IMG/VR virus record: IMGVR_UViG_3300042922_000850
Span: 32,001-96,000 of that record
Strand: one strand, 5' to 3'
DNA length: 64,000 bases
Source of the DNA: a virus
In this document: one piece after another, positions 188-52,473 of the stretch
Layout: each line of letters opens with the position of its first letter
How positions within the stretch are numbered: the first letter of the stretch is position 1
The notes under the pieces: model-generated
Told to the model about the DNA's origin: nothing
Databases searched by the model: none
The model's input: only the letters and a program-made list of their open reading frames with translations
Translations under genes and position numbers: made by a program

Positions 188-2158
188 TTATTTTAAACTG
201 TCTCTTCTTGGAGGCAATTTTTCTGGCATCTGCCTCATATCAATTTGAGATTTCTTTTTCATTTCTTCTGACTTTTCTAATTGTTGCATTGCGGTTCTCA
301 CTTGTTTTTGCATACTATTCGGGAGAGTGGAAATCGGTTTATCTCGATAAGCTTTAGGGAGCTTCATGATTTGAACCACGATATTCTTTACATCTGGGTT
401 GATGCTACTAAGTGGATCCTCTTCACTCTGCGCATTAGGCGGAGGAGCTGTATTCGCTTGGGCAGCTTCAGTTACGCCTGCTCCGGTTTGCACGTTTGGC
501 GGTTGTTGCTTAGGAGTAGCAATTGCTTCACCGTTTGGTGGTACACCTGGCTGTTGACCTTCTGGGGCCATCATAGCCGCTGGATCCACACCCATTTCTG
601 ACTGCACCATCTGCGAAGCGTTTGCCTGATGTGCTTGCAGTACACTGCTGATTTCTACCTGCTTTTGCTGTAATTTGAATTGAATATCCATCTCAGATAA
701 CTGCATTTCCATACGCTTAATATTTACTTTGCTTTCAAGTTCAACAGCGGCTAATGCTTCACGCTCAAGAGCATCCCTCATTTTATCCGGATCAATGCCT
801 ATTGTCTTCCACATATATTCGTTAGAGCATTTTCCGGCTCCGTTAAGCTGGATAATTAATTGCTTTTGTTGAACATCATCCTGCATCTTTAAATCCGTCA
901 TTTTGACAGATACTAGTTGTTCATCATCTTTTTCATTGATCCACTCACCACGAGCCTTTGCCATCCCTTTGACACCAAAGTTCTGCATAAAGTCTTTAAG
1001 TAGAACTCTGTAGGTTATAAATTGGTTTTCCAAAATCTTTAATGATATTGAACTTCCCGAGTAACTTACACCACCAAAAATAAACTCTCTTGGCACGTTC
1101 ATACCAGCAAGAATTTCTTCTTGGATTTGTTGAATTTCAGGAGTTAGGAGCAATGATTTGCCTTGACCGCCAACGCTCAATAAGTTAACCGGCACAGGGG
1201 AAACAACTTTGTAGTTGGGGTCTTTAACAGCTTTCATTAATTCCCCAGCAAAGTTCTTAGCGACAAGGTTCCAATCGGCCTCAGGATTAAATTCCTCTGT
1301 TCGCTGTAGGTAATAAACTCTCATAGGAACAATATGCTCTCTGGCAATTGCTTCTTGTGCTTGCCTTAAGGTATTACGATACATCAATAATTTTAAAACA
1401 TTCGCAACAATGGGTGTTCCCCATACATTGTTATCACCTAAAGAATCTGTGGCTCTGGCAAAATGATAAACATTCTTTGAATTCAAAATAACCATCTTGT
1501 TTTCTAAGACCGCTTTTTTGATAATGTCTGGGATTTTATTATACTCTGCCTTTGGCTTTTTGTTCTTTACAATTCTTGCAATGCTAAATGGAATCTCCCA
1601 TTTATAAACCTTTTCTTGAGTTGTTGGATTATAATCAATGGTCATTTTGGAAGGATCAAGCCTAACCATGTTTTTCCATTCTTTCAGACCCGTCATCTTG
1701 TTTACGGCCATTTCTCCAAAAACAAAACAATTACCATAAAGATGATAGTCGATACCAATCTCAATCAGTAACTTATGAATATTTATATTTTTATGAAATA
1801 CCCTGTCATAAGTTTTTAACCTATCACTGTCCCCGTTATTCGCCTTTTCCTTATCTTCAATATCTTCCAAATAAACTTCAGTGACCGGGAAAGCTGATAG
1901 CGCATTGATAGCTCCCGAAATTAATGGATCAAACATATAGAAGTATTTGCACCAACGGAAGATTTCTTGCGATGTCTCCGGTATTTTTGTATCTGAAAGA
2001 TTAAGAAAAGGTGAGGGATACGGGTCTTGCTCCATGCCTCTGAAATTAGCGATTTTAACCATCTCGACTGCTTTCTCACGTTCCTCTTTGAGTATCTTCT
2101 CTTTTTGAGTTGAAGCGATAGAAACTTGATTTGAATGGTCTTGTGTTTCTTCAGACAT
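188..2158 (-). CDS. phage portal protein
   Basis: 656 aa; N-terminal 'RWCKYFYMFDPLISGAINALSAFPV', 'YGNCFVF', 'WGTPIV' and 'ILAGMNVPREFIFGG' resemble large-phage portals; Q/P-rich C-tail; near terminase. Confidence 0.75.
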   Translation of the reverse strand: MSEETQDHSNQVSIASTQKEKILKEEREKAVEMVKIANFRGMEQDPYPSPFLNLSDTKIPETSQEIFRWCKYFYMFDPLISGAINALSAFPVTEVYLEDIEDKEKANNGDSDRLKTYDRVFHKNINIHKLLIEIGIDYHLYGNCFVFGEMAVNKMTGLKEWKNMVRLDPSKMTIDYNPTTQEKVYKWEIPFSIARIVKNKKPKAEYNKIPDIIKKAVLENKMVILNSKNVYHFARATDSLGDNNVWGTPIVANVLKLLMYRNTLRQAQEAIAREHIVPMRVYYLQRTEEFNPEADWNLVAKNFAGELMKAVKDPNYKVVSPVPVNLLSVGGQGKSLLLTPEIQQIQEEILAGMNVPREFIFGGVSYSGSSISLKILENQFITYRVLLKDFMQNFGVKGMAKARGEWINEKDDEQLVSVKMTDLKMQDDVQQKQLIIQLNGAGKCSNEYMWKTIGIDPDKMRDALEREALAAVELESKVNIKRMEMQLSEMDIQFKLQQKQVEISSVLQAHQANASQMVQSEMGVDPAAMMAPEGQQPGVPPNGEAIATPKQQPPNVQTGAGVTEAAQANTAPPPNAQSEEDPLSSINPDVKNIVVQIMKLPKAYRDKPISTLPNSMQKQVRTAMQQLEKSEEMKKKSQIDMRQMPEKLPPRRDSLK

Positions 2159-4633: not shown

Positions 4634-6184
4634 TTATTCCTCCAAGCCAACCATGTGATATTGTTTTGACATTCCCGACTTTAATCCATCATAGTTGGTA
4701 AGGGTATCCTGTTTGTTTAGCTTTTTCTGCTCCAGCTTATCAATGTCGACATTGTTGACCTTTTCTTCTATGTCTTTTATCACACCCGACGCAATCTTAA
4801 ACAAATAGTCAAGCTCTTCTGAAGCTGTTTTGATTTCCGGCGCCTTTTTTGTTTCTATCGTAACCCTGGCAATTCCATCCGGAATAGGCTGACTTTTAGG
4901 GCTATCTTCCTTTTGTTCTAGCTTTTCAAGTCTGCCCTTAAGATTTCTTCCGGTCGTTGCAATAAAGAGGGCCGGGAAAATAGACCTTGATAAACCTTGC
5001 AATGCTTTCTTTGGCAATGTTTCTTTTGCCCACTCTCCCCAAGGTATGTTCCTTGGCTGTGGTATCTGACCTAGCTCAATACCTGCATCATAAGCCTGTT
5101 TTGATATGCTGCCGGTCGTTTTTCTTTTTCTTGGTTTATTCTGCTTTTGCAATGAAGATAACGGGAAGTCAACAACAACGCGCTCAACATTAGGGTCGAC
5201 AGCAGGATCAAAAATATTTTTGCCTGCAACAAATCCTGCAAGTGCAGGGGCGCCATAATATGGGATTGATTCTAATCCTGCTCGAAGAAAATCATCTCTT
5301 ACCATTTGCTTTGCTTTTGGCCGAACCTTTGAAATAGTATCTTGCACTTTGGATTGGATACTAGCAGATTTTTCAAAAACCTCATCAAGGACCACACTTG
5401 CTTGTTTCCCTGAATTATGAAGGGCATCATAAATATCTCCATCGCTATAGAGCAGACCACCCATATCTCTTCTCATGTTTGAGTGTTCCTGAGACAATTT
5501 CCTACTAACGTTCCTTGCGTTATTTATTTTTTCATTTCGAACATCCTTGGTTCCGTCTTTAACTACATCCATGACGGTCTTCATGGATTTGTTTTTCCCG
5601 AGAATTTTTCTAGGGAGTTTATGAACGAATTTATCCAGTCCCTTTTTCGCACTTTGAACCGGTGCCATTGGGTTCTTCTTCGCTAGCCCTTGGAGTAATC
5701 CGGCACCTAGCACAGCTCCTCCGGCAACAAGGTAAGGGTTAAACCCTTCATCATTGTCGTGGTAATTTTTCTCTTTGATTTCTACAAGGTTTATGGGCAT
5801 ACTCGGTTGTTGTGGTCGGTTTGACTGATAATTTCTGTTGGGACGACTATAATTGCTATTGCGGTTACCATAGGAATTGTTAGCCCTATTATTGTTATAA
5901 GGTCTGTTATTATAACTCTGGTTACGTGGTGCGGTAGCGTTACTGCCAGATGTTTCCTCAGCAGCTTTGCAAAGGAAATCAAGTTCTTCTGAAGCATTAC
6001 GGAATAAAGGGTTTGAGTTAACTGCATTAATCGTGCCGTCTCCAGAGGGTGCCTTTACTAATTTATTACCGAGGATGGCATCGTATTTACTTCCTGCTGC
6101 CATCTGAGCCTTTATATTCTGTTTCGTTTTCTTCCCGGTACCAATAATTTCGTTTCCAAGGAAAAAGGATGATATAGGATCCAT
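4634..6184 (-). CDS. putative virion protein with repeated ASEELDxLxKxA motifs and hydrophobic segments
   Basis: 516 aa; NASEELDFLCKAA, KQASVVLDEVFEKSAS, KTASEELDYLFKIAS; N/R-rich low-complexity tract. Confidence 0.5.
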   Translation of the reverse strand: MDPISSFFLGNEIIGTGKKTKQNIKAQMAAGSKYDAILGNKLVKAPSGDGTINAVNSNPLFRNASEELDFLCKAAEETSGSNATAPRNQSYNNRPYNNNRANNSYGNRNSNYSRPNRNYQSNRPQQPSMPINLVEIKEKNYHDNDEGFNPYLVAGGAVLGAGLLQGLAKKNPMAPVQSAKKGLDKFVHKLPRKILGKNKSMKTVMDVVKDGTKDVRNEKINNARNVSRKLSQEHSNMRRDMGGLLYSDGDIYDALHNSGKQASVVLDEVFEKSASIQSKVQDTISKVRPKAKQMVRDDFLRAGLESIPYYGAPALAGFVAGKNIFDPAVDPNVERVVVDFPLSSLQKQNKPRKRKTTGSISKQAYDAGIELGQIPQPRNIPWGEWAKETLPKKALQGLSRSIFPALFIATTGRNLKGRLEKLEQKEDSPKSQPIPDGIARVTIETKKAPEIKTASEELDYLFKIASGVIKDIEEKVNNVDIDKLEQKKLNKQDTLTNYDGLKSGMSKQYHMVGLEE

Positions 6185-6292: not shown

Positions 6293-6667
6293 TTATTCTT
6301 GAATATATCCGTACTGCTTAAATACTTTCAGAGCAGCTTCTTTGTAAGCGTTGGCATTTTGAAGTGCATTGTCTGCAGCTTTTTCAATTGCTTCAGCTTC
6401 TTGCCAAACAGCAGCGGCCTTCTCAATTGCTTCAGCAATTTCAGCAGCTTCTTTATCTTCTTCTTTTTCCTCTTCCTTTTCGTCTTCTTTTTTGGACGTA
6501 GCCTTTGCAATTACTGCTTGAGCTGCAGGAGAGATTGCAGGTTTTTCTGCAGGAGCAACCTCAGGAGTTTCTTCGTCCTCTTCTGCTACCTTTTCAAACA
6601 AATCGCCAGTTACGATTTCCTCAGCGAGCTTTTCTACAAATGCATCATATTCTTTTTGGTTTAACAT
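6293..6667 (-). CDS. acidic scaffold-like protein with multiple EKxA motifs
   Basis: 124 aa, E/K/A-rich; EKLAE, EKVAE, DKEAA, EKAAA, EKAAD, YKEAA; strong RBS and own promoter. Confidence 0.5.
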   Translation of the reverse strand: MLNQKEYDAFVEKLAEEIVTGDLFEKVAEEDEETPEVAPAEKPAISPAAQAVIAKATSKKEDEKEEEKEEDKEAAEIAEAIEKAAAVWQEAEAIEKAADNALQNANAYKEAALKVFKQYGYIQE

Positions 6668-6770: not shown

Positions 6771-8456
6771 TTAATAATACAGCGCTGTTCCGGTTCCTTG
6801 ATCTCTTTTTTTAGATTCTGCTATGCCTACACCGGCACCAGCGCCAACGAGAACAGCGCCTCTTGCTTTCTTCCTGGATGAAACTGCTTTGGTATACGCT
6901 TTCTCGGCATCTTCTACAGCTTTTTTCGCACCATCAATGTCTAACTCTTGTTCAAATCCATTCAGCTTTTTCTTAGCATTTGAGATTTCGCTGTCCAAGT
7001 CATTTTGTATTCTTCTTGACTGTTGCTTCGCCATGCTCTGAGCCTGATTTAATTCGGTCTTTCCATTCATGCGTTCCATATCAGCTTTGATCTTGGTCGG
7101 AGAAAGATACTTTGACGGGTTGAGAGGATGCTTTAAGGCGTTTTCATTAAGGACTTCGTCGGTTCTACGAGCAACGCCCTCATACTTGTCAAAAGCATCA
7201 CTAAGCATCCCGTTTGCACTTTCCATGCGAGGATGAATATCCAAGTTCTTCTTGGACTTTGCTAAGTTATCGAGAGTGCTTCGTGCACCCTTTATTCGGT
7301 CATCGTTAACTTTTGCAGACAGTACACTTGACGCATTATCTAAGTTTTTTTTTGCGTTTCTTGCAGTAGACCCAATTAATGCTTTGCCGAAAGCAGCAAA
7401 ACCTTTTCCGGCAGATGCGAGTTTTTCAGCTTGCTCTTCTGTGAGACCAGCGGATTTAATAAAATCACTTCTCTTCCCCATAGCAATTTTAGCTAACTGT
7501 GCATTAGAAGAAACGTTACTCATTTTCTCGGTAAGGCCACTAACATCTTTAATTGTAACTCCATTCGTCACCACAACCGGAAGCACCTGATTACTCTTGG
7601 TTGTAAAGGCAGCTTCTTTCATAAAAGAATATTGCTTCAATGAAAACTCACTAGCTTTCTTTGTGATGTCTGCAAACTCAATTTCCAATGAATAATCTTG
7701 TGGTAACTCGCGAGCTTCTTTCATTACTCCAATTTTTTGCTCTATTGTCTTTTTTACGAGTAATTGATCCTTGGGGTTACATTGAGCCATTTTACACATT
7801 TGATCAAATACCTCTTGAGTATTCACGCCATGTCTTGAATACTGAATGAGCGCATCTGCAATGATGTGTGAATTCTCCGCAACTTTATCCATGCATTTTT
7901 GAATTTCTGTGTCGACAGATGTTAATGCCGAAGCTGTTCTTTCGAGATCAATGTTTTCTTTTGTTCGTTCTAAATCCGTGGACATAGGCGCGAATTCATA
8001 AGGAACAAAATTGAACATGTTCAAATGGTCTCCGTTATCAGCGTCCCAACTAGCTTTTTTCTCTAAGCCGTTCCGGTCAGATAAGTTTGCCTGATGTTCG
8101 GCTTTTGAACCGATAACATTGTTTTTCTCACCGAGTTCGTCTTTTATTTGCTTTAAAGATGCCAGGTCAAACACAACGTCGCGGTCCGGGGAATTATTCA
8201 TCTGATTATATTTAATTAAATAAACCTGATTATTTACTTCCTCTACTATTCTTTGTATTTGGTCACTGTTTAGATTATCTTTTTTGGCAATTTTAGCGAT
8301 GGCTTTATTTAAATCAATATGAAACTTCATATATTCGTTCACAACAGCATCTTTGTATGGTCCTAGCTTGTGAGCGAAATCGCCAGTTGAAATTTTGGTT
8401 TCAGGAGCGCTGAAACCGCCCGATAGGGCGTCTAATAATGATGGCAAATAAATCAC
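6771..8456 (-). CDS. putative head/virion protein with K-x-A motifs and C-terminal basic/Gly-rich module
   Basis: 561 aa; EKKAS, DKVAE, KKASE, MKEAA, EKLAS; C-terminal GAVLVGAGAGVG. Confidence 0.5.
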   Translation of the reverse strand: MIYLPSLLDALSGGFSAPETKISTGDFAHKLGPYKDAVVNEYMKFHIDLNKAIAKIAKKDNLNSDQIQRIVEEVNNQVYLIKYNQMNNSPDRDVVFDLASLKQIKDELGEKNNVIGSKAEHQANLSDRNGLEKKASWDADNGDHLNMFNFVPYEFAPMSTDLERTKENIDLERTASALTSVDTEIQKCMDKVAENSHIIADALIQYSRHGVNTQEVFDQMCKMAQCNPKDQLLVKKTIEQKIGVMKEARELPQDYSLEIEFADITKKASEFSLKQYSFMKEAAFTTKSNQVLPVVVTNGVTIKDVSGLTEKMSNVSSNAQLAKIAMGKRSDFIKSAGLTEEQAEKLASAGKGFAAFGKALIGSTARNAKKNLDNASSVLSAKVNDDRIKGARSTLDNLAKSKKNLDIHPRMESANGMLSDAFDKYEGVARRTDEVLNENALKHPLNPSKYLSPTKIKADMERMNGKTELNQAQSMAKQQSRRIQNDLDSEISNAKKKLNGFEQELDIDGAKKAVEDAEKAYTKAVSSRKKARGAVLVGAGAGVGIAESKKRDQGTGTALYY

Positions 8457-9160: not shown

Positions 9161-10783
9161 TTAAATTGTTCCACCATAGGCACTGGAAAACTCAACTGCA
9201 GTTCCTCCGCCACCGCCTTTTCCATATAATTTAGCCGCTAGATATGCATACACGCACGAATGCAACCCATCGTCGGGTTGGCCTTCCGGGTGAGTATAGA
9301 ATAAATCCTCAGATTTTCCGCTTTGAGCTTTACGATACTCCGCAAGCTCAACTAAATGATGGTCATAAAGCCATGAATATTTTGATCTATCCGAACCTGG
9401 CCATAAAATTTCTTTTTTGTGAACAGCGGTAATATATTGTTGCATTACTTCTGTACGATTAACGACCCACATTGTTTTTTGTGGATTGTATTTTGCTTTC
9501 TGATTTTGGTTAAATGAGTAGTAGCACGCGGCTACCCGACTACCAAACAGAGCTCTTAATTTTTTATACTGAACAAATCCAAATCCCCAATCGACGATAG
9601 CATATGCAATACGAAATAAATTCATCAGGTTGCAAATATCTCTTAATTGCCAATCCGGGTCTAATTCTTCGCCCTTTTCATATCGTTTATTGAATATCAT
9701 CTGAAATCTTCCTGATGAATTATATGAATAAATAGTTACAACTGTAAATGACTTTTCACCAGTTCCCCAGTCTACACCCATGAAATTCTTAGTATTAGAG
9801 AATTCTCTTTCGGCTCTAGGATATAGCTTTAAGTCATTGGTGCTGATACCGGCAAGAACCAATGAAGTAAACGGTTTATCTGCATTTTCATAGCTACGAC
9901 CAAGCACCTCGTTGTGGAATTTATCCGAGGAATAAGTCGTATACTTTGCCCAAATATCGTCTGCCTGTATCCATGGCACCATAAGTTGAGAAATACGGAA
10001 TCCTTTTAACTTTCTATCCGGTTGTAACTCATACCAAAAGCCGTTAATGATACTGGCTTTTGGTAAATCTCGCTTACATTTTCGGCATACAAATCTGGTA
10101 GGTTCAAGGTTCTTGATACCCATGACCTGATGCGTATTACAATGCGGGCATTTAACAATCCATTCGTTTTGAGTAGACCGATCCCAATATTGTTGGATTG
10201 TATTACTGAAGGTCTTAGGAGTGCCAGTATACCAAGTTACCCTCATTCTGGCTCCGGCATCCAAAGCATGCGACTGGGTCTCCTTTATAACTGGAATGGC
10301 ATCAATGTGAATATCTTGAATTTCATCACCCCACACACCGTTTACAGTGATACCACGAATATTGTCTGCCATTCCAAAACAATGTTTAAAATAATTAATG
10401 GACCCATTATTAAATTCTTTAAATTGTACAGCCTGTGAATCCTGTTTCCCAATGAAATTGTTTTTTACAACTTGATCCTGACTATACTCATATATCTTGC
10501 CAATTCTTTCTTTTGAAAACTCACGCACTTGGGAAGTCAATGGCGCAAAATATAACGCTTTAAAATGTGGCTTCGTTAATGTTAAAGTACCTATCATTGT
10601 AGAATTTGTAGTAGATTTTTCTACTTGCCGGCCCGACATAATAATGCCTTCTTCGATGTCTGCATCATAGATGGGTTTTAAGTAGTGTCGGTCCGTTAAC
10701 CGAAACGGCCTACCATCTAATTGAAATGTGGCTTCTGCGAACACAGACGGCACTACCTGTATCTTATTTGCTATTTCGCTCAA
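9161..10783 (-). CDS. terL: terminase large subunit
   Basis: Walker A-like SGRQVEKST, Walker B VWGDEIQD, coupling motif YTGTP, CPHC...CRKC Zn finger, nuclease MGVDWG and PDDGLHSCVYA. Confidence 0.9.
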   Translation of the reverse strand: MSEIANKIQVVPSVFAEATFQLDGRPFRLTDRHYLKPIYDADIEEGIIMSGRQVEKSTTNSTMIGTLTLTKPHFKALYFAPLTSQVREFSKERIGKIYEYSQDQVVKNNFIGKQDSQAVQFKEFNNGSINYFKHCFGMADNIRGITVNGVWGDEIQDIHIDAIPVIKETQSHALDAGARMRVTWYTGTPKTFSNTIQQYWDRSTQNEWIVKCPHCNTHQVMGIKNLEPTRFVCRKCKRDLPKASIINGFWYELQPDRKLKGFRISQLMVPWIQADDIWAKYTTYSSDKFHNEVLGRSYENADKPFTSLVLAGISTNDLKLYPRAEREFSNTKNFMGVDWGTGEKSFTVVTIYSYNSSGRFQMIFNKRYEKGEELDPDWQLRDICNLMNLFRIAYAIVDWGFGFVQYKKLRALFGSRVAACYYSFNQNQKAKYNPQKTMWVVNRTEVMQQYITAVHKKEILWPGSDRSKYSWLYDHHLVELAEYRKAQSGKSEDLFYTHPEGQPDDGLHSCVYAYLAAKLYGKGGGGGTAVEFSSAYGGTI

Positions 10784-11292: not shown

Positions 11293-12411
11293 TTAATGTT
11301 CCCTTTTCTTTTCAAAATTATACTGCGGATAAAAATCACCCTCTTGCGACTTGAGTTTACCTTTGGATTTATCTTCATGTGCTCTGTAACCTAGATATGC
11401 TCCTCCGCCAATAGCGCCATAAGAACCTACAGTCTTTGCAATTTCTTTACCATAGTTTAATTTCGCCTCACCGAGCATACTGTCCGTAACATTTTTTAAG
11501 CTATCGTTTGGCTTATCAAAAGCTGCTAACACATGGTTGATACTTTTTGAATGAGACTTAGCGCCATTTAAAATGCCTTTTGCGTTTTTTATATTTTTTC
11601 CAGTGAGAACATCACCAACGCCCTTTAATATACTTTGATTTGAAGCTATTCTCTCAAATCCATAAGAGATAATTTCATCAGCAATTTTATCTTCTTCAGA
11701 TTGAAAAGCGGCAATTTTCTCAAAAACTTCGTCAACAATTTCAGTGGCTTGCTTAAAATCTGTGTTACTTATTTTATTCTTCTTTGATTTTATAATGGTC
11801 TCGGGGGTCTGAGTAAGCTGCACGAAATCACCAACATCACCAACAGCTTTTAATGCTCCTCCTGCAGCTAATCCTCCGCCAATGACCTTTACTGCTTTCT
11901 TCTTATCGCCCCAACTGGTTTTCCCAATAACCTTGGGTACATTCTTAACGATATCAACCATGCTGTCAGCGAGCTTACCTTTATTCTTTAGCATCATGCC
12001 AAAATAGAGTGCACTCGGTATACCTTTTACAGCACTAAGCTTCGCATAATCCTTAACACTTGGGTTGCTCCCGAGCTCTTTGTTATGAAGCTTCTGCATC
12101 CTAACATTAGGGACTACTATATCTGATGCCACACCGCTAAGTGCGTAAACCGGAAGAGCATAATTTAACACTGCTTTTCTTAGCGTTCGATTTTTTTGCA
12201 AAGAATCCATAGCTTTCCACGACTGACCAGATAACCCCTTTTTCAGGCCATAGCCAAGCGCCAGAGCAGTACTACCTTTTACGACCGGACTGATTATAAA
12301 GCTATCTTTTGTTGTTGAAAGAACCCTGTCTTTAACTACGTCTTTGGCGGTATTAATGAACTGATCCTTTTTTGTTCCTATATTATTATTTCCTGCTTGA
12401 TTAACAGACAT
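11293..12411 (-). CDS. putative virion protein, basic Gly-rich/membrane segments with acidic KxA linker
   Basis: 372 aa; KQATEIVDEVFEKIAAFQSEEDKIADEIISYGFERIAS. Confidence 0.5.
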   Translation of the reverse strand: MSVNQAGNNNIGTKKDQFINTAKDVVKDRVLSTTKDSFIISPVVKGSTALALGYGLKKGLSGQSWKAMDSLQKNRTLRKAVLNYALPVYALSGVASDIVVPNVRMQKLHNKELGSNPSVKDYAKLSAVKGIPSALYFGMMLKNKGKLADSMVDIVKNVPKVIGKTSWGDKKKAVKVIGGGLAAGGALKAVGDVGDFVQLTQTPETIIKSKKNKISNTDFKQATEIVDEVFEKIAAFQSEEDKIADEIISYGFERIASNQSILKGVGDVLTGKNIKNAKGILNGAKSHSKSINHVLAAFDKPNDSLKNVTDSMLGEAKLNYGKEIAKTVGSYGAIGGGAYLGYRAHEDKSKGKLKSQEGDFYPQYNFEKKREH

Positions 12412-15795: not shown

Positions 15796-16590
15796 CTATG
15801 CTTCTATTGTCTCAGAAGCACCCTTTAATATTTTTGCTTTCTCGGCGCTTCTGATACCTTCATAAGCATCACGCGGGCCCTGATTTTTCATTTTACTTAA
15901 ATAGATCTTTCTGGTCTCGTCGTCCGTGTATTTCTCTGTGCCAAAATCACTATTTACTAATTTATATTGGTCATCGAGTTTTTTATTAGCAACTAATGTA
16001 CCGGGGATAAGTCCTATTATGGCACCGTTTTTTACAGCTGTCGGCATATGACCGCCTCTCAGTCCTCCTATGGTTGCTCCGACAAGCGCTCCGGCTCCAG
16101 CGCCCACAGCCATGCCGCTAGCATCTTTAAGTCGTTTTTTCATCGGATAGTTTTCCTTCAAATATTCATCGTACTCTTTGGTTGTCGCTTTGCGATTTTT
16201 CCTAAGTTCTTTTCTCTGCTCAAAACTTAACATAGCTTCTTTTTCAAGACTGGATAGGTTCTGTTCGAATCCTCCAAGAATATTCAGAGCCATTTTCTCA
16301 ACATACTCTTCCGCTGGCATTTCTTCTTCTGCCATCTTTGTGATCTCGTTGGTTAAAACTTCAGCAATTGCTTGACTAAAAAGATAGCCATCGTTAGCAA
16401 CTTTTACAAAAACAGCGTCCGCAAAGTCGCTAGAATACTCAGGATCGGTCTTAACAGAACTGCAGATATTTGCACTGTACTCTGCCACTTTCTCCATGCT
16501 GATATTTGAGGAAAATCCAGAATTAATTTCTTCCTCGGCTTTCTTCTCAAATATTTTATCTAATAGTTCCGATGCTTTTACTTCAATCAT
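15796..16590 (-). CDS. putative virion protein: acidic KxA-rich N half plus glycine-zipper C half
   Basis: 264 aa; EKKAE, EKVAE, VKVAN, TKMAE, EKMAL, EKEAM; GAGAGALVGATIGG. Confidence 0.55.
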   Translation of the reverse strand: MIEVKASELLDKIFEKKAEEEINSGFSSNISMEKVAEYSANICSSVKTDPEYSSDFADAVFVKVANDGYLFSQAIAEVLTNEITKMAEEEMPAEEYVEKMALNILGGFEQNLSSLEKEAMLSFEQRKELRKNRKATTKEYDEYLKENYPMKKRLKDASGMAVGAGAGALVGATIGGLRGGHMPTAVKNGAIIGLIPGTLVANKKLDDQYKLVNSDFGTEKYTDDETRKIYLSKMKNQGPRDAYEGIRSAEKAKILKGASETIEA

Positions 16591-16620
16591 TGATAATTAC
16601 TCCCTTCATTATTTGATAAA

Positions 16621-17145
16621 TTATGCGATATCAACAACATCGCCCAATTTATAGCTACGTGATACTTTGCTGCGCAGAGTACTATTCGGGTTTAAAACAT
16701 CACCTTTCACTCTCACTGGTTGAATTTTCTTAGGGGATAAGCCTGCCACAGTATTTGTTACACCTTTGTCTGCAATGCCTATGTTCGTAACCGGCCCGGT
16801 TATTTGTTTTGGTGGTTGTGCAATAACAGAGGATACATCTTTTGTAACATTCGATGCGGGCACCTTCGCTTTAATTGAGCTCCCTATCATGCCACCAACT
16901 AAAGCACCTTGCAACGCACCACTAAGTTTATTACTTTTTAAATTGCCATTTTCATCAGTTGACGGTTTTGCGGTTAAAGCCCCTCCGACTGCACCTAACC
17001 CAGCTCCGGTCAAAGCCTTTTTTGTGACTGACTTCGCAGCAAAACTTTTAACTGCATTCGCAAGAACAGCTCCGGCGACAGCAATCTTTTCTGTTTCCTC
17101 TGCCATTTTATAAATACAATCTTCGTAATACGCTATTTTATCCAT
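16621..17145 (-). CDS. MDKIA-tagged glycine-zipper protein
   Basis: N-terminus MDKIAYYEDCIYKMA; two GxxxG helices. Confidence 0.6.
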   Translation of the reverse strand: MDKIAYYEDCIYKMAEETEKIAVAGAVLANAVKSFAAKSVTKKALTGAGLGAVGGALTAKPSTDENGNLKSNKLSGALQGALVGGMIGSSIKAKVPASNVTKDVSSVIAQPPKQITGPVTNIGIADKGVTNTVAGLSPKKIQPVRVKGDVLNPNSTLRSKVSRSYKLGDVVDIA

Positions 17146-17422: not shown

Positions 17423-17544
17423 GGATATGATAAAAATTATATCGTGTAAATAACTAAAGAGGACAATGCTCCCTTGGTTATTTTATTTAAGTGTTGTGGA
17501 AATACAAAAATAAAACTATCCGAGCATGGGAAGGGGAAATAGCA

Positions 17545-18150
17545 ATGAGCGAAAAGGCAGATAGAAACAGGGATCTTATCATAAGGGCAAAGGAGGGTGA
17601 CGCGAAGGCACTGAATGAACTCTTCAGAATTAACGAAGGATTTAGCAGAAGCGTAGCAAAAAGATACTTAAACACTGGGATAGAATTTGAAGAACTGGTT
17701 AGCATGTGTAAATTAGGGATGGTAAAAGCCTACAATTCTTTTGATCTGGAGAAAAATATTTCATTTATAACTTATGCGTCACCCTGTATGATGAACGAAA
17801 TTAGAATGGTTCTTAGACAAAAATCAACTCATACCGTAGACGCATTATCCGTTTCCATAGAGGCAGAAATAGATACGAATTTAGACGGGCACCCCATAAG
17901 TTATAGCGATGTTTTAGCTGACGACAGGATTGAAAGTAACGTTTGTGATTTATGTGTTCAGAGACAAGAGATTTTAGATATGAAAAAAATTATAGCCGAA
18001 TTGCCAGAAAAGGAACGCCTAATTATTACGAACATATGGTTTTACGGTAAAAAACAGAGAGAGGTATCAAATATTTTAGGGATATCTCAACCGCAAATTT
18101 GCAGACTGGAAAAGAAGGCTCTTCAAAAAATAAAAAGAAAATTAGAATAA
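17545..18150 (+). CDS. RNA polymerase sigma-70 family factor, sporulation (SigF/G/K)-like
   Basis: region 2 'EELVSMCKLGMVKAYNSFDLEKNISFITYASPCMMNEI'; region 4 'KQREVSNILGISQPQICRLEKKALQKIK'. Confidence 0.88.
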   Translation: MSEKADRNRDLIIRAKEGDAKALNELFRINEGFSRSVAKRYLNTGIEFEELVSMCKLGMVKAYNSFDLEKNISFITYASPCMMNEIRMVLRQKSTHTVDALSVSIEAEIDTNLDGHPISYSDVLADDRIESNVCDLCVQRQEILDMKKIIAELPEKERLIITNIWFYGKKQREVSNILGISQPQICRLEKKALQKIKRKLE

Positions 18151-18218: not shown

Positions 18219-18368
18219 ATGAAGGAAGAGAAGCAAACAAACATAGGGTATAAAAAAATCCTGGCAGAGAGAGGATTAGAACAAAATTCAAAGAACATTA
18301 TGAAAGTCATGGTGGAGAGAGCGATGGGGATACACAAATTTATAAAGAAAAATAAAACAGATAAATAA
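18219..18368 (+). CDS. small cassette protein (49 aa, MKEEKQTNIG...NKTDK)
   Basis: manual ORF after motif at 18191-18205 and AAGGAG RBS. Confidence 0.6.
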   Translation: MKEEKQTNIGYKKILAERGLEQNSKNIMKVMVERAMGIHKFIKKNKTDK

Positions 18369-18413
18369 AACACAGGGGCATATGCCCCTGTGTTTTATTT
18401 ATCTGTTTTATTT
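18350..18413. terminator. 64-bp perfect palindrome / bidirectional terminator (core GGGGCATATGCCCC)
   Basis: exact self-complementarity including the ends of both converging ORFs. Confidence 0.85.
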
Positions 18414-19258
18414 AATTCATTGATCGTATCTTTAAAGATTGGTCTATTCTCCTTCACTACCGATCTCTGGAGCTTATTCCCTAGGTTCTTATTGTAAACC
18501 CCGCTCTCTCCATAATTTAATCCAAGTTCCTTGTATCCATCAAGTTCTCCGGTGACACCCCTCATTTTTTTCATATATTCTTTTGTGGCTTTTGGCGCTA
18601 TTGCGGTATCAGCGGATTCATTTAAAATAACCTTTGGACTAATATGGGAGCTGGTGTCAGCCATAGGTACTCGCTGATCTTTATAAGCGATGGAAGACCT
18701 TTTACTTTTGAGGAGGTTTGATCCATGGTTTATCTCGTTTGCTTCGTGGCGATTGATAATTGCTTCCGTAAACTTTCTGTCAGTGGGGTTTTCAAAAGAC
18801 TTTAGATCGGCCCCCATTCCCTTTAATGTCTTCGTCAACTTATTAATGTCGCCCTTGTGAGCAAATCCACCACCATGTGCCCCAAGCATTGACTGAAAGC
18901 CTCCACCAGCTTCAAAAGCATCTTTCAGGTCTTGTCTATAGTCTTCTGGGTCTCCTCCAACCGATTTAATTTGATCCATAAAAAATTTCCTCGATTTTAC
19001 AGAACTAATAGCTCTATCAGCCATGTCATCAGGTGTAAACCCAGAAACGGATTTTGCACCCTTGCTCTTTAAGATATTTTCAGTCCCCTTGTTTAACCCG
19101 GCCAACTCTTTCTCATGATTTAAAACGCCACTACTCATTAGCCGATTAACCGATTTGTCGGAAAGACCGCCTACAACCTTTTTCCATGCTCTTGCCATGG
19201 CGCTTTTCTGCATTGCCTCTTTGTAAATTATGTCTTCGTAATATGCTACTTTATCCAT
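18395..19258 (-). CDS. MDKVA-tagged protein with HExxE motif (paralog of 62582-63547)
   Basis: MDKVAYYEDIIYKEA; RHEANE...HISPKVILNES. Confidence 0.6.
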   Translation of the reverse strand: MDKVAYYEDIIYKEAMQKSAMARAWKKVVGGLSDKSVNRLMSSGVLNHEKELAGLNKGTENILKSKGAKSVSGFTPDDMADRAISSVKSRKFFMDQIKSVGGDPEDYRQDLKDAFEAGGGFQSMLGAHGGGFAHKGDINKLTKTLKGMGADLKSFENPTDRKFTEAIINRHEANEINHGSNLLKSKRSSIAYKDQRVPMADTSSHISPKVILNESADTAIAPKATKEYMKKMRGVTGELDGYKELGLNYGESGVYNKNLGNKLQRSVVKENRPIFKDTINELNKTDK

Positions 19259-19271
19259 AGAACCTCCTGCT

Positions 19272-21920
19272 TTATTCTTTATCGTGAATATTTTTCGCTA
19301 TCACAGCTCCACCGGCAGCAACTCCACCAATACCAAGTAAGGATAATCCCATACCTTTGCCAAATCGCTTAGGATTATTTTTGATATAATCTAAAATTTC
19401 TTTGCCGCCTAACTTTTTGTAATTCTTACTATCTTTAAATACTTCTGGCCCAACGCTTCCTTCAAAGACAGCGGTATTTTTACGCCCAATATTATTATAA
19501 TTCATGCGATACAATGATTTAATATTATCTGCGTTGGGATCCAATTTCCTCACTTCGGACAAATATTCACTAAAATCTCTGGTTCCTCTTAGCTCCGGAT
19601 TATCTACTTCTTTGAGTTTCCATGAGGGAACAGATGCCTTTAACGTCTTTCTCTTTTTAGCCTCTTCTTGAATTTTTTTCGCTTGTTCAATCGGGTCAGA
19701 GAACACCCAACCAGCAGGGTTAGTTTTCATCGCTTCTCTTTGAGCGTAAACATTACCCACACTGTCTGCTACCATCTTTTTCCTACCAAAGTATACTTTA
19801 TTCGCCTGTTGCTCTTTGGATAGTCGTACTTGACTTGTAATATTATCCTCATCAAGAGCCTTAGAAGCATCGAGGCCGCGTTCTAAAATACTATCGACAT
19901 TGTTTCTGTGAGTGTTATGATACATCTTTTCTCTTCCTGTCAGATTTCCACGGTCAAGTTGATGCTTAGTTACTGCTGCACCCGTGATAGCGGTAGCGGC
20001 AGCCACAGCGTTCTCGTTATCATTATCTTCGTCTTTTTTTGCCGCTTTATAAATTCCCTCTTCATACATTGCGATTTTATCAATGTATGCTGCCGTCTTA
20101 TCAGCACCTCTTAACTCACTCTTAGATTTTTGTGCACCGCCAGTATAAGTTCCTTTATACACAGGAACTTCCTCCATTAACAACAGCTTAGATGCCTCCA
20201 TGCGGTGATGTCCATCAAAAAGAATTTTCTTCCCAGGAGTTTGAGGACGAATACCATTTAGTTGGTTAACTATAATGAACGGCTCCACTTTCCCCTTATC
20301 TTTTTGAATACCTTCAGCAATGCTAAGGACCTTCTCTTGCTTTATAGGCTTATTAATGCCCTGTAAGTTCTTAATTTTCTCCGTGGTCTTTTCCCACTTA
20401 TAATTCTTTGCCATAGCAAGAGCACCATCTACATTTGGCGTCTTATATTCATGAGAAGTTGCCATCATCGTAGCAACCTTGCGGGCGATGTCGTCAGAAA
20501 GAGCGGCTTCAATTGCGGGAATCTTACCATCCTTACCAACTTGGTCGTCTTCTCTGGCAGATGCAGCTTTTTCAAAGTTTGAAGATTTCTTACACTTTAA
20601 TTGTTCCATGATATGTCCTGGCGAAACCTTTTTTAAAGCTACGTCATAGTGCTTTGCCATATCTCTGAAGGTTTTAAAATGTTCTTCCGATATAATATCA
20701 ACATCCTTATCAGTGTAGTGTTCAATATCATTATCGTAACGAAGGGGTTTAAAACTTCCCTTTAATTTATACATAGAACACGGTTTATCCAAGTTTACCG
20801 CATCGGTATATTCCAGCCTAGTTCCCTTGTAATTACTTTCATCAGGGACATCTTTGTTACTGGTCTCTACCACAAACCTTGCGTTCCCATCGTTCCAACG
20901 AGCTCCAAACGCCGCCGCAAAAGAAGGATCCTTGGAGACAAAGATCACCTTACCCTTGTTGTTACCGGAAGTATCCTCAGATTTCCGAAACTTTTTAATA
21001 TCCTGAACTCTGGATGCGTGATACATAAATTGTTCTTCGGCTGTTTTAAGGATTTCTTCTTCATACATCTCAGCCTTCTTTAACCACGATTTAAAGCCTC
21101 TTACTTTTTCAGGGAGCGTACTTGCGTCCCCATCAAAATTAATGCCATTATCGTCAACGTAGGCGATTGCCGGAGGTTTTTTATCGGTAACATCATCGAC
21201 TTCGATATCATTCTCTTGCAGGTATTTTTTAATTGCATCAATCCCACCTGGTTCGGCGCAACGGGTGGACACGACGATAACCTTGTGGTCTTTGCGTAAG
21301 TCCTGAATAGCTTCTTTAATCCCCGGCACAGGTTCGTCAGGGATAATATTGTTACCCTCCCACCCGCTTTTATAAGAGTGGATAACGCCATCAAAGTCGA
21401 ATACGATGTTGGGCTTCTCTTCAGAAGCTTTCTTTTCCAAGTTATTTTTATAAATCTGACGCACCTCATTGATTACGTCATTCTCTAATCGCTCGGTCGA
21501 GCCTTTTGTTTTTGAGTAGTTCTCTTGGTAGTCCTTGGTATTCTTGGCAATATTATCGCCAATTTTGGATCCTACAGCCATTCCTGCAGTCATTCCGGCC
21601 ATAGGGAGAACAAAACCAAGACCTGCGCCGGGATATTTTTTCTTTGAAAGAAACATCGGGGTCATTCCAATGGCTGTTCCGGGGAGTAACCCAACAGCCA
21701 TCCCTTTAGTTTTTGCATCTTGCGTTTTAAGATTTAATTGCTTTTCTTTTTTGGAATTTGTATAATCTGGATGACTTTCAATTAATTCTTGGGCTTTATT
21801 GTACAGAGGATCATAATCATTCGGATCACCATCTGTCATATCATAAATTTCATTGTAAATTTTTCGACTGATTAATGCCTCTTTATAAATTTTTTGTTCA
21901 AGTTCCGTTGTCTTATCCAT
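19272..21920 (-). CDS. multi-domain tagged polyprotein: glycine zipper + HAD hydrolase + ART-like + ParB-like + ART-like/TM
   Basis: FDFDGVIH...VVSTR...KPPAIAYVDD; YHAS...IFVSKDPSFAAAFG; ILFDGHHRMEAS; YHNTHRNNVDSILERGL...VYFG; domains separated by tag copies or KxA sites. Confidence 0.65.
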   Translation of the reverse strand: MDKTTELEQKIYKEALISRKIYNEIYDMTDGDPNDYDPLYNKAQELIESHPDYTNSKKEKQLNLKTQDAKTKGMAVGLLPGTAIGMTPMFLSKKKYPGAGLGFVLPMAGMTAGMAVGSKIGDNIAKNTKDYQENYSKTKGSTERLENDVINEVRQIYKNNLEKKASEEKPNIVFDFDGVIHSYKSGWEGNNIIPDEPVPGIKEAIQDLRKDHKVIVVSTRCAEPGGIDAIKKYLQENDIEVDDVTDKKPPAIAYVDDNGINFDGDASTLPEKVRGFKSWLKKAEMYEEEILKTAEEQFMYHASRVQDIKKFRKSEDTSGNNKGKVIFVSKDPSFAAAFGARWNDGNARFVVETSNKDVPDESNYKGTRLEYTDAVNLDKPCSMYKLKGSFKPLRYDNDIEHYTDKDVDIISEEHFKTFRDMAKHYDVALKKVSPGHIMEQLKCKKSSNFEKAASAREDDQVGKDGKIPAIEAALSDDIARKVATMMATSHEYKTPNVDGALAMAKNYKWEKTTEKIKNLQGINKPIKQEKVLSIAEGIQKDKGKVEPFIIVNQLNGIRPQTPGKKILFDGHHRMEASKLLLMEEVPVYKGTYTGGAQKSKSELRGADKTAAYIDKIAMYEEGIYKAAKKDEDNDNENAVAAATAITGAAVTKHQLDRGNLTGREKMYHNTHRNNVDSILERGLDASKALDEDNITSQVRLSKEQQANKVYFGRKKMVADSVGNVYAQREAMKTNPAGWVFSDPIEQAKKIQEEAKKRKTLKASVPSWKLKEVDNPELRGTRDFSEYLSEVRKLDPNADNIKSLYRMNYNNIGRKNTAVFEGSVGPEVFKDSKNYKKLGGKEILDYIKNNPKRFGKGMGLSLLGIGGVAAGGAVIAKNIHDKE

Positions 21921-23751
21921 TTTTACCCTCCCGGCTTTTCTTTAATAAATCAAAGAGCAATTGATTTTGTTTGTCTTTGTGTTGAGCAACTTCATAAATA
22001 AATTCATCTGGCGTCCGGTATTGTGATTTAAAAATACCGAGTGTTTTTGGCATTGTAGCCATGTAGCGATTTACATTTACAGACCGGTCTTTAGGCTCCC
22101 TGTGGCTTAACCCACCACTACGAATACCTCGTGCCTCCATTTGTTTCATCTTCTCTGGATTAAAATGAGGGTCAAGAACACCTTCCCATGTGGTATCGTT
22201 TAAAGAAATACCTTCTCCGCCGGCGCCGCTAATCAGCATGACCTTCTTTGCCCTGTTGTTAAAATCAACAACATCCTTTTGGCGGCTCTCTTCAGTTACA
22301 CCTTTGTTACCTTTCCCAATAAACTTTCCATACTCAATCCCACGGTCTTTTAAACCCGCTTCAAGCGTATCTGTGCCGCCGTTAATTAAATGACTGAAAA
22401 GAAGTGCCTGACCGTCTGGAGTATTCTCTAAATGAGCCTCTAGGTCGTCTAAGAGTTTCTTGGTCTTAGGGGTAATCTTTGCGCTTTCTTCCAAAGAAAT
22501 ACCAGGATGAACTGAACCAACGCTGTTCATCAATTTTCTTTCCTCAATCATTTGATTATATGCTTTTGCAATTTCCTCATTTTTAAAGGTTTCCAGACGT
22601 TTTGCAACAATCATCTGCTTTATCTTGGGATTGTCAGAAAGCATATCTTTGTATATTTTAGCCTGCTTCTTACTAATTGGTACCTTTATGATATTGGTTT
22701 TCTTTTCAGGCATATTTGCGACATCTTTGATATCATCATTATCTAAATAATCAATATACTTGGATAATTTACTTGCCAATTCCTTCTTATAATTAAATCC
22801 AACGACAGGAATTCTCTTTTCATTTGTTCCTTGGTATTGCCTATCAGTACTTCGCTTCAGGTACCGTTTGGAAAACTCATCTTTGCTTTCTCCGAGATTA
22901 TGATTGCCATTTGATGCAACATCGACAAGAGGCAATACATCAGCAATTTCATTAGACACTACTGAACCGGTTAAGCCGATATAGTTTTTGTACAGTTTTC
23001 GGCTAGATTTCAATGTTTCCGTAGTAAGAGTATCTTCGTTTTTACCACGATGGCTCTCATCCGTTATGACTGTATCTGCTCCGCTTTCTTTTAAATATCG
23101 TTCAGGATCGCTACGAAACATTTCATAAGAAATAACATTATAATCAGAATTTGGGTCGACGTTGTGATGCGTTCCTTTTTTTATTTCGGTTTTGTTCCCG
23201 ATTACATTTACTGTGCTATCAGTAAATTTACTAACCCCTTGTTCTGCAAAGTTATTTCTAAGAGAAGCGGGGACAATTATAAGCGCTTTGTTTGCCTTCC
23301 CCTCTGCCTTTAGTTTCTCGAACCTAGCAATACCGGTAAGCGTTTTTCCACTACCAACGCCGTGCGCGTAGATTACACTGTCTCCTGGGCGATTAACAGA
23401 CTTTTCTTGATGCGGATATAATTTTACATCCGATTTCAGTGCAGCTTCTTTATAAATCATATCTTCATACATTGCTATCTTATCCATCTGAATACTCCAT
23501 TTCGGTTCATAGATTTGTTTGGTGGATTTAACACTGCGAAGGTTCTTTATTTTAAACCTACGGATGCCACCTTTTTCCGGATCGTATCCCCAGAAATCGC
23601 TACCATCTATTTTATAAGGTTCTACGTTCCGAAAAGAGATGTTGCCTTTTTTATCACAGTACTTTATCTGCACCATGTTCATATTATTGCCACCGAGTTT
23701 AAGTTTCTCTATGTGTTGTAAATCACGTTTTCCGAATTCTTTTTCCGGCAA
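21913..23751 (-). CDS. SNF2-type SF2 helicase with N-terminal WYL-like domain and internal MDKIA tag
   Basis: LYPHQ, GVGSGKT, DESH, LTGS, GGEGISL, QMEARGIR. Confidence 0.85.
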   Translation of the reverse strand: MPEKEFGKRDLQHIEKLKLGGNNMNMVQIKYCDKKGNISFRNVEPYKIDGSDFWGYDPEKGGIRRFKIKNLRSVKSTKQIYEPKWSIQMDKIAMYEDMIYKEAALKSDVKLYPHQEKSVNRPGDSVIYAHGVGSGKTLTGIARFEKLKAEGKANKALIIVPASLRNNFAEQGVSKFTDSTVNVIGNKTEIKKGTHHNVDPNSDYNVISYEMFRSDPERYLKESGADTVITDESHRGKNEDTLTTETLKSSRKLYKNYIGLTGSVVSNEIADVLPLVDVASNGNHNLGESKDEFSKRYLKRSTDRQYQGTNEKRIPVVGFNYKKELASKLSKYIDYLDNDDIKDVANMPEKKTNIIKVPISKKQAKIYKDMLSDNPKIKQMIVAKRLETFKNEEIAKAYNQMIEERKLMNSVGSVHPGISLEESAKITPKTKKLLDDLEAHLENTPDGQALLFSHLINGGTDTLEAGLKDRGIEYGKFIGKGNKGVTEESRQKDVVDFNNRAKKVMLISGAGGEGISLNDTTWEGVLDPHFNPEKMKQMEARGIRSGGLSHREPKDRSVNVNRYMATMPKTLGIFKSQYRTPDEFIYEVAQHKDKQNQLLFDLLKKSREGKNG

Positions 23752-23839
23752 ATATAATCACCCTCTTTCCGCGATATTTTTAGCTTACAGTATGATTATA
23801 AGCTAAAAATGGCAAAATATAAAGATTCTATTTTTTAAG

Positions 23840-51900: not shown

Positions 51901-52473
51901 AACCGCTTGATCTCTAATTTGCAGAACGTTTCCAAGAAATCCTGTACTTGTAGCTGGGTTGTTCCTGGTATCAAGACCAACATAAGGGTCATCTGTATTA
52001 TTTTGGCGGTCTTTCTCCTGTAATTGCTGTATAGCGTAAACGACCTTTTTCATGTTTTCTCTAGAGTAAGGAACTCTGGTTCCTTCGGATTGAATAACAT
52101 CAAAAGGGATAAGTTCTCCATCAATAACCATAAACGGGAGTTCAATTACTTTGCCAAAATATTTGATTGCAACTACACCATTCGCATCTGAAACATAATC
52201 AGAATGTGCTTTATCCATCTCTTCGGGGTTTAGTTGTATAGCCACATTCGGTGTGCTTGGGAAGAAGGCTAATTCATTAAGCACGTACTTTCTAATAAAA
52301 GTCTCTATATTATCTGCTGTCGGCTGATAAATATCTATCCCTGCATATTTCTTAATAGCAAGATCCTCTTTGCTTAAAGAATAGTCTCTTGCTTCTTTCT
52401 CAAAGCCAAAAGACAAAGATGCTCCAAAGGCATTCGATATATTTCTCAATCTCTTATCCATAATAAGCTTCAC
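48952..52473 (-). CDS. large putative virion/head protein with >10 KxA sites, three C-terminal glycine-zipper modules and a Zn ribbon
   Basis: 1173 aa; EKEAR, EKAAT, EKMAA, EKVAA, EKEAG x2, ASEELDELAKEAS, ASEELDELFKEAE; CEVC...CPECG. Confidence 0.6.
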   Translation of the reverse strand: MKLIMDKRLRNISNAFGASLSFGFEKEARDYSLSKEDLAIKKYAGIDIYQPTADNIETFIRKYVLNELAFFPSTPNVAIQLNPEEMDKAHSDYVSDANGVVAIKYFGKVIELPFMVIDGELIPFDVIQSEGTRVPYSRENMKKVVYAIQQLQEKDRQNNTDDPYVGLDTRNNPATSTGFLGNVLQIRDQAVGHSSPSGQNYIYAAEKIDELLEKAATIKEFTEADLKVLNQEFERKASEEVKLEMEKMAAEINVPDDQEKLKLFEKAKNLQYDDAIKLPNGTVIAFPEKNGNEISMTNGIVVDNFMSFADKAPKKVKLVITADARVKILSNSERFLCLKAPETKFSIKMESLSTLQEGDIFMAFDGDKALFPSKVNWINERTYGSGDRKNDISTKSYELSPIYDNSEIANLLTTSETQNILNVNIRVNLCTLDGAKFFEMPYGDFIAKKSKELAMDEFKLSNLMSKGSICINYHKVDKNPYATQGPARTETNLVLATDPETRVILIKGIIKDYLQNKEDLDKLAYVESYEDTFEKVAAVEKNKIKIVCRDKQLGAYDVEINYVDTKKAILKRFVKTYTRISKDDLKLVLKLLGFNQAEFQEIIFKVNNNPQMTYALPANPNIEALQGARVQSLAGKKIQNTVKSMVKPKELAGVLATSVIASMLSDGLSGAPSAVKDIAAQLGNVASEGKTLSSVFEKIALERESQSALEVAKIMSLSSFFAEKVASTANETHNYPRIYEVSKDIIENRDILERVACDLMQLKVMQYKNRNQVVSPNYIQAAIEQIDHLHKVAYDVCSAKYDMTEIMEKEAGFVLPGAIVGGAIGGLKTSKENDRDKTLKGVAKGALAGAGIGLGANLASSALGAKVVQKASEQGTQKFEAAKAKMQEEFKNHVEKQSFEATDESAEKEAGAGLIPFSAGVGTVLGGIEGKKKESEENPKAVLKGAVKGGLLGASAGAVGNIVTSLPALVKDVAKSKAVKHASEELDELAKEASALSGAAIGGLMGSGAAYQKSVDQAKEVNPTALPSDYGSEAASNAIAGGAAGVGIGALAGAGVKAIKNAVKNVKVSKLASEELDELFKEAEMNVPTKEEAKKESNVVPEEPTIDPKTGLKDINCEVCSYKGQPDNLGYCPECGALGGITPKEISNVTEMSAPSHDLGGEIYSESAQSFEE

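Follow-up and report, generated by a model that had tools for sequence, protein, structure and literature searches.

A 64,000-nucleotide stretch of viral DNA (positions 32,001 to 96,000 of the IMG/VR record IMGVR_UViG_3300042922_000850; hereafter the window) encodes an 882-amino-acid (aa) protein, P0001, that we read, at a probability of roughly 0.55, as a phage "polyvalent" cargo precursor that would have no embedded peptidase and would be processed in trans by the prohead protease. P0001 is made of five modules, A to E, with four enzyme-like domains among them: a HAD phosphatase, a ParB-like domain and two domains resembling ADP-ribosyltransferases (ARTs). Copies of a 15-aa tag and linkers with a K-x-A motif lie between the modules. 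Because the same motifs mark the capsid, scaffold-like and protease proteins of this phage, P0001 is probably a capsid-loaded multi-effector precursor, at least as judged from the sequence. Trans-processing by the prohead protease seems the most economical explanation, since the linkers bear the head-protein motif and the protein has no peptidase embedded in it.

The tag, MDKIAxYEExIYKEA, consists in essence of a pair of K-x-A motifs spaced by 10 residues. It is found in six proteins of the genome: P0001 has a degenerate copy at the start and two more copies at internal positions, the neighbouring SNF2 helicase protein has an internal copy, and it opens four other proteins of the window (at 17145, 19258, 56809 and 63547). 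The copies differ at synonymous sites, implying selection on the peptide, and for this reason we have rejected the idea that the tags are DNA repeats that merely drive recombination. Ten K-x-A triplets are present in P0001 (aa 13, 163, 202, 281, 292, 451, 481, 608, 615 and 625), eight of them in tags or junctions; those at aa 202 and 481 are within helices of the HAD and ParB modules and are without the flanking consensus. A first-pass annotation of this DNA, made from the letters and their translations, had claimed that every domain junction carries a K-x-A motif, and all the boundaries do indeed bear [I/F/L]-[E/Y]-K-x-A-[S/A]-[E/D]. The pattern phi-[E/Y]-K-x-A occurs four times in P0001, against 0.30 expected from shuffles. 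AlphaFold2 (AF2) models put the junction sites outside the domain cores, in flanking helices or in linkers modelled with low confidence; the polyprotein idea of the first-pass annotation thus withstood the structural check proposed with it, by which K-x-A sites inside folded domains would have spoken against it. Among 90 homologues, the proteins that carry module C, D or E, the density of K-x-A per residue is 0.0344 in the 25-aa module flanks and 0.0063 in the cores (5.5x), and the aligned sites give the consensus [I/F/L/M]-[E/Y]-K-x-A-[S/A/E]-[E/D]. A K-x-A lies within the first 30 residues in 53/90 of these proteins, compared with 11/74 of the HAD-only proteins. A T4-type L/I-x-E reading of the linkers was rejected, as the aligned sites do not fit it. 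Many of the K-x-A sites also contain A-x-E, the T4-/phiKZ-type head-protease site that is cut after this motif, and the cut here could similarly follow the Glu of A-x-E.

The link to head maturation comes from the distribution of the motif in the rest of the genome. The HK97-fold capsid protein has the N-terminus MVSNYMLAIKTAAET; 91 of 120 homologues of this protein have a K-x-A among residues 1-30, the form being x-IKTA[S/A]E in nearly all cases. The capsid protein of this phage has a second copy of the motif, GLEKIALEK, at aa 31-38. The 822-aa head-maturation protease protein, whose N-terminus matches gp19 of Bacillus phage G (7e-36) and the "prohead protease" of Rhodococcus phage E3, has 17 K-x-A triplets, with K-x-A-[S/A] present seven times against 0.94 expected, and the motif is repeated many times over in its C-terminal extension. 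The protease domain itself matched nothing among the PDB sequences or in NCBIfam. Two acidic scaffold-like proteins, of 214 aa and 124 aa, are also dense in the motif; these small, very acidic proteins (genome 9803-10447 and window 6293-6667, both on the minus strand) contain EK-x-A-[S/A]-E repeats. With expectations corrected for composition by shuffling, phi-[E/Y]-K-x-A is found 33 times on the minus strand, that of the virion genes, against 5.6 expected, and 11 times on the plus strand against 4.6; K-x-A-[S/A] is found 56 times on the minus strand (26 expected) and 12 times on the plus strand (12.1 expected). The enrichment of the motif is confined to the virion-gene strand. The head-protease sites of T4 (L/I-x-E) and of phiKZ and SPN3US (A-x-E) show the same distribution, and in these phages the propeptides also direct proteins to the prohead (PMC10052503). 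In the literature on phage G and SPN3US we found no published K-x-A site.

The mechanism that we propose runs as follows. The prohead protease of the phage would recognise the K-x-A motif, and the tag would carry P0001 and the five other tagged proteins, the SNF2 helicase included, into the prohead. There the protease would cut the modules apart; these would then exit the capsid with the DNA, with host nucleic acids or proteins as their targets, and the hydrophobic modules would go to the membrane. Possible functions would be to heal the ends of cleaved RNA, to interfere with NAD-dependent or nuclease-based defence and to form a membrane conduit. A broader and more tentative proposal, for which the case is about balanced but leans slightly to the negative, is that an uncultured clade of Bacillota phages uses a portable peptide code, in which the 15-aa tag would be an address, single K-x-A linkers would be cut marks, and any enzyme cassette so marked could be loaded into the capsid and set free by the prohead protease as an effector of its own.

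The P0001 gene is a clean one: its frame is intact from an ATG preceded by a ribosome-binding site (GGGAGGG) to the stop codon (window 19272-21920, minus strand). The first-pass annotation had described a five-module protein of 882 aa, and its modules are recovered both by homology (as blocks defined by BLAST of homologous hits against P0001) and by structure models. The ranges that it had given for the HAD (aa 168-277), first ART-like (aa 296-450) and ParB (aa 454-605) domains agree with these modules, and all of the motifs that had been quoted are in place, with FDFDG at aa 174, YHAS at aa 300, YHNT at aa 667 and VYFG at aa 709. Module A appears to be an orphan, as no homologue of it (aa 1-165) was found among shorter proteins. 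Module B is, from its sequence motifs, identified as a capless HAD phosphatase of the PNKP, polynucleotide-end or RNA-repair type, and the earlier HAD call thus holds: besides the PHROG match (Table 1), its homologues match HAD_SAK_2 (14/26) and HAD_PNKP (4/26), while P0001's own Pfam HAD score is below the gathering cut-off. The module has the DxD (FDFDG), S/T (VVSTR), K (KKPPA) and DD (YVDDN) motifs, and motifs I-IV are, in order, invariant in our 26-sequence alignment A3 (D20, D22, S63, K93, D101 and D102).

The assignments of the other three domains depend on fold to a greater extent. For module D the earlier ParB/Srx-like call is supported by the predicted fold, an alpha+beta fold of the ParB/Srx type with the conserved G-x-x-R nucleotide-binding motif; in sequence, ParB_N was matched by one of 28 homologues, at 0.0059. 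Two ART-like domains had also been proposed, and they fared unequally. The second, module E, is modelled (m323a9ba0b5be) with a confidence (predicted local distance difference test, pLDDT) of 83 overall and >90 over the domain, and this model has an ART fold: Foldseek against the PDB aligned it with pertussis S1, KptA/Tpt1, DarT, cholera/LT and Rhs ARTs, and against BFVD with a phage RNA 2'-phosphotransferase (6.9e-4), several phage G proteins, DarT and an ART-PolyVal protein. Its profile also weakly matches Tpt1 and DarT by sequence. Residues R663, H668, T670, Y710 and N774-P775-E776 show a conservation of at least 95%, with H668 and Y710 on predicted strands; these conserved residues suggest an active site of the H-Y-E type, with E776 as the candidate Glu. 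The first ART-like domain, module C, has weak fold support as an ART-like fold. Its conserved residues are H301, S303, F327, S329, Y384, E400 and E412/E413, and in model m40318b37e4a2 the second tag copy forms a helix directly before its strand 1. A fold search of the atlas with the C+D model was uninformative on module C, as ParB proteins filled the results, and a C+D profile gave only noise against the PDB sequences. Hydrophobic helices had been placed on both sides of module E; the C-terminal one (aa 857-875) is there, whereas the segment before the domain (~aa 637-650) is Ala/Gly-rich only and below the hydropathy cut-off.

Table 1. Features of P0001, of its locus and of the head genes (window coordinates unless marked genome).
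Feature	Position	Strand	Basis or remark
Module A: tag and Gly-zipper hydrophobic pair	aa 1-155		
Tag copy 1, aa 1-15, MDKTTELEQKIYKEA	21876-21920	-	
Gly-zipper-like hydrophobic pair, aa 73-91 and 98-116	21573-21704	-	hydropathy
A/B junction LEKKASEE, aa 161-168	21417-21440	-	motif logo
Module B: putative capless HAD phosphatase, aa 170-278	21087-21413	-	phrog_1238 at 1.7e-18
Tag copy 2, aa 280-294, LKKAEMYEEEILKTA	21039-21083	-	K-x-A at both ends
Module C: candidate divergent ART-fold domain, aa 297-448	20577-21032	-	
C/D junction FEKAASA, aa 449-455	20556-20576	-	model pLDDT 61-63
Module D: predicted ParB/sulfiredoxin-fold domain, aa 468-604	20109-20519	-	invariant DGHHR, aa 569-573
D/E junction: DKTAA, aa 607-611, then tag copy 3, aa 613-627, IDKIAMYEEGIYKAA	20040-20105	-	pLDDT 42-50
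Module E: predicted ART-fold domain, aa 655-852	19365-19958	-	
C-terminal Gly-rich hydrophobic helix, aa 857-875	19296-19352	-	kept in solo module-E homologues
Promoter-like site, sigma-70-like	23795-23823	-	
Upstream gene: WYL-like domain, internal tag (23443-23487), SNF2 helicase	21913-23751	-	
Downstream tagged 287-aa protein	18395-19258	-	no family matched
Bidirectional terminator-like hairpin, 20 pairs, at the end of the putative three-gene operon	18358-18405	.	
Large terminase	9161-10783	-	phrog_675 at 7e-71
Portal	188-2158	-	
HK97-fold capsid protein	genome 7208-8248	-	phrog_2522 at 5e-24; NF042927
822-aa head-maturation protease protein	genome 10475-12943	-	phrog_18299 at 1e-9

The module order of P0001 was compared with that of its homologues, as the first-pass annotation had suggested, and the modules turn out to be solo, permuted or fused. 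The orders D-C-E, D-C, C-D, B-C-D, D-E and E-D all exist, along with many solo modules, and B-C-D recurs at 71-73% identity in P0002, P0003 and P0004, which are on independent contigs from other samples. Relatives also have fusions of SNF2 with modules B, C and D; at the syntenic locus of one relative, C and D are joined to the SNF2 gene, and in P0001's place is an SH3_3 protein. Thus the slot of P0001 is kept among the relatives and its content is variable. Other cassettes in the homologues include P-loop kinases, 5'-nucleotidase, DnaJ and WYL; in P0004, P0008, P0010, P0019 and P0021, for example, an AAA_33/AAA_18 P-loop kinase, NT5C, a nucleoside deoxyribosyltransferase-like domain or DnaJ is joined to modules B-E. 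Taken together, the cassettes of these relatives point to nucleotide and RNA-end chemistry as their theme. Metagenomes yielded more than 175 relatives of the capsid protein, the contigs reaching ~168 kb, with one record labelled as an Anaerovoracaceae metagenome-assembled genome; cultured relatives were few and distant, Bacillus phage G being one of them. Searches with P0001 itself gave little. The gene had no megablast match in 50,697 phage records, tblastn against the phage records matched the HAD part alone, phmmer against the PDB sequences found nothing, and neither did searches of NCBIfam and PADLOC.

The window is part of a single contig of 166,758 bp (37.7% G+C) that, from its terminase, portal and capsid protein genes, is that of a tailed phage. 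The genes for SNF2, P0001 and the 287-aa protein look like one operon: the SNF2 and P0001 genes overlap by 8 bp (3' end and start, respectively), the next gene is tagged and is followed by a terminator-like hairpin, and there is a promoter-like match upstream. As a whole the promoter scan of this AT-rich DNA was at chance (35 found, 33.2 expected). The SNF2 gene has a TTG start codon, and its product has a WYL-like N-terminal domain of ~88 aa, then the tag, and the helicase last; in relatives the WYL-like module is the C-terminal part of other cargo proteins. Between the operon and the terminase gene, 8-12 kb away, are plus-strand genes that include one for a sigma factor. This sigma-70-family-like gene (17491-18150, plus strand) is on the opposite strand within the cargo block, and a Sigma70_r2/r4 gene is at the equivalent position in the related contigs L006 and L007.

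Several other proteins of this genome deserve mention. A 1173-aa protein with no family match (window 48952-52473, minus strand) has six phi-[E/Y]-K-x-A against 0.48 expected and is possibly another processed head or cargo protein. Four minus-strand proteins (window 4634-6184, 6771-8456, 11293-12411 and 15796-17145) combine Gly/Ala-rich hydrophobic segments with K-x-A and have Gly-zipper Pfam matches below the cut-off; these are possibly ejection or membrane-channel proteins. Like the 287-aa protein, the tagged 321-aa protein (window 62582-63547, minus strand) matched no family. Directly downstream of the portal, among the virion genes, is a 2301-aa fusion of RNA polymerase beta (Rpb2) and beta' (Rpb1) (genome 25094-31999, minus strand), in which zero copies of the strict K-x-A patterns were counted.

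A number of observations weigh against P0001 being a capsid cargo that is processed in trans. The phage is uncultured and is known here from sequence alone. Many polyvalent proteins have a peptidase domain, but none was found in P0001 (with Pfam, PHROGs, NCBIfam and PADLOC) or in its operon, and no Pfam ART or ParB model is above threshold for P0001. The tag of the SNF2 protein is internal, behind the WYL-like domain, so the tag is not strictly an N-terminal signal like the capsid-targeting sequence of T4. Moreover, the tags are predicted to be helical, and the motif could serve, in helical form, for docking or as a linker and not as a cut site. Finally, the sigma-70-like promoter match leaves the timing of the operon's expression open, though the match is at the chance level.

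The helical prediction leads to the most serious of the alternatives, which we nevertheless consider unlikely: P0001 could remain uncleaved, as a membrane-anchored multi-enzyme whose tags and K-x-A sites are amphipathic helical linkers or docking motifs, for example for a scaffold, the portal or a chaperone. The recurrence of the motif would then be due to the reuse of one linker at gene fusions throughout this phage clade. Several of the linkers, like the tags, are predicted to be helical, the GLEKIALEK copy of the capsid protein may be a structural part of its N-arm, and there are many multidomain polyvalent proteins without demonstrated processing (PMC5512222). However, a mere linker would hardly account for the conserved IKTA[S/A]E at the very start of the capsid protein, or for so many copies in the C-terminal extension of the protease and in the scaffold-like proteins. 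In addition, the free permutation of module order and the existence of solo genes argue against a need for covalent linkage.

The setting of the operon bears on a second alternative, which seems to us rather improbable. The three genes could form an intracellular, non-virion system that works at the membrane on nucleic acids of the phage or the host, with the shared peptide as some other signal, for example for localisation or timed degradation. Its distance from the terminase gene with plus-strand genes in between, its own terminator and the sigma-70-like match upstream would all suit such a system, and HAD/PNKP-type, ParB and SNF2 functions are also found in non-virion phage proteins. Yet the motif is common to the capsid, protease and scaffold-like proteins and is enriched on that strand only, the promoter scan did no better than chance, and in phage P1 the SNF2 and ParB proteins (DarB and DdrB) are capsid-packaged (PMC5512222). 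It is highly improbable that P0001 is artefactual, with separate genes joined by a chimeric assembly or by frame read-through: the internal tags do resemble gene starts (aa 613 is like M-D-K-I-A with I for M), but there is one uninterrupted frame with one ribosome-binding site and none before the internal tags, and the B-C-D order is conserved on the independent contigs.

If the capsid-loaded precursor is real, polyvalent proteins can depend on the head-maturation protease and not on a peptidase of their own, and the phage would offer a compact tag-and-linker system to load foreign proteins into capsids. Its cargo (the PNKP-type phosphatase, the ParB/Srx domain, two ART-fold domains and the neighbouring SNF2) would be a plausible counter-defence set that targets nucleic acids or NAD-dependent immunity. 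Should the peptide code hold as well, the head protease, acting in trans, would take over the part that embedded peptidases have in the classical polyvalent proteins, and the free permutation, splitting and fusion of cassettes between phages would be explained. The K-x-A code would also be a sequence-readable rule for finding injected cargo in the ~130-170 kb phages of anaerobic Bacillota, a group that is large and so far uncharacterised.

Of the known systems, the polyvalent proteins are those to which P0001 is most readily compared. These multidomain effectors are encoded by phages and conjugative elements, have many ART, ParB and SNF2 domains, and are proposed to be delivered with the DNA and separated afterwards (Iyer, Burroughs, Anand, de Souza, Aravind 2017, PMC5512222). 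P0001 shares with them several unrelated effector domains on one polypeptide, a phage with portal-terminase packaging, the repertoire of ART and ParB/Srx domains with SNF2 adjoining or fused, the mosaic and rapidly shuffled domain order, and the proposed co-delivery with DNA followed by separation. It differs in having no MuF domain and no embedded zincin-like (MPTase) or other peptidase; such a peptidase is frequent, though not universal, in polyvalent proteins (PMC5512222). Separation of P0001 is instead proposed to occur in trans, by the prohead protease, at a motif common to the head proteins. The candidate catalytic residues of its ART domains are H, Y or F, and E, in contrast to the H-Y-D type (Tox-ART-HYD2) described among the polyvalent proteins, and the Pfam models ddrB-ParB and ART-PolyVal had no sequence match to P0001.

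The Dar system of phage P1 is a more specific parallel, as it too pairs an SNF2 helicase with a ParB-fold domain; the SNF2 helicase next to P0001 gives a weak match to phrog_10089, "DarB-like antirestriction". P1 DarB (SNF2/methylase) and DdrB (ParB-like) are packaged in the capsid, and DdrB is processed before packaging (PMC5512222). In our phage search there was no detectable sequence similarity between P0001 and the P1 proteins, and the P0001 locus differs in having no methylase and in belonging to a different phage lineage with a Gram-positive-type host. We know of no shared 15-aa tag in P1.

With regard to the known ART-fold enzymes, modules C and E show no sequence-level membership in the families of pertussis toxin S1, Tpt1/KptA, DarT or Arr, and module E is unlike these in standing between an Ala/Gly-rich segment and a hydrophobic helix. 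We have rejected a two-lobed enzyme of the Tpt1/KptA kind for module E: only the C-terminal NAD lobe (chain residues ~91-180) aligns, the N-terminal RNA lobe with its R-H-R-R tetrad is absent, and upstream of the module are instead the tag and an Ala/Gly-rich helix. An ART of the R-S-E type, the clade of T4 Alt (PMC5512222), was also rejected, since strand 1 has a conserved His (YHNT, YHAS) and no Arg; the phage search gave no Alt-like match. The resemblance to Alt, which had been invoked in the first-pass annotation, is thus one of analogy only, the conserved residues of module E suggesting the H-Y-E type.

It is the head-maturation systems of T4, phiKZ and SPN3US that are closest to the proposed processing. 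Like the capsid-targeting sequence of T4, the tag is a short peptide common to the N-termini of several non-structural proteins that would enter the head, and, as for T4 gp21, phiKZ and SPN3US, the capsid protein, the protease and the internal proteins all have copies of a short protease consensus. Many of the sites here contain A-x-E, as in SPN3US (PMC10052503). The differences are that the consensus is centred on K-x-A and not on the L-x-E or A-x-E of the T4/phiKZ type, that the tags are also internal, between domains, and that the P0001 precursor would give several enzymes, while the known T4 and phiKZ substrates lose propeptides only. Nevertheless, the combination that characterises the substrates of the T4/phiKZ type, a shared short peptide together with a recurring consensus that extends to the capsid protein and the protease, is found in this phage.

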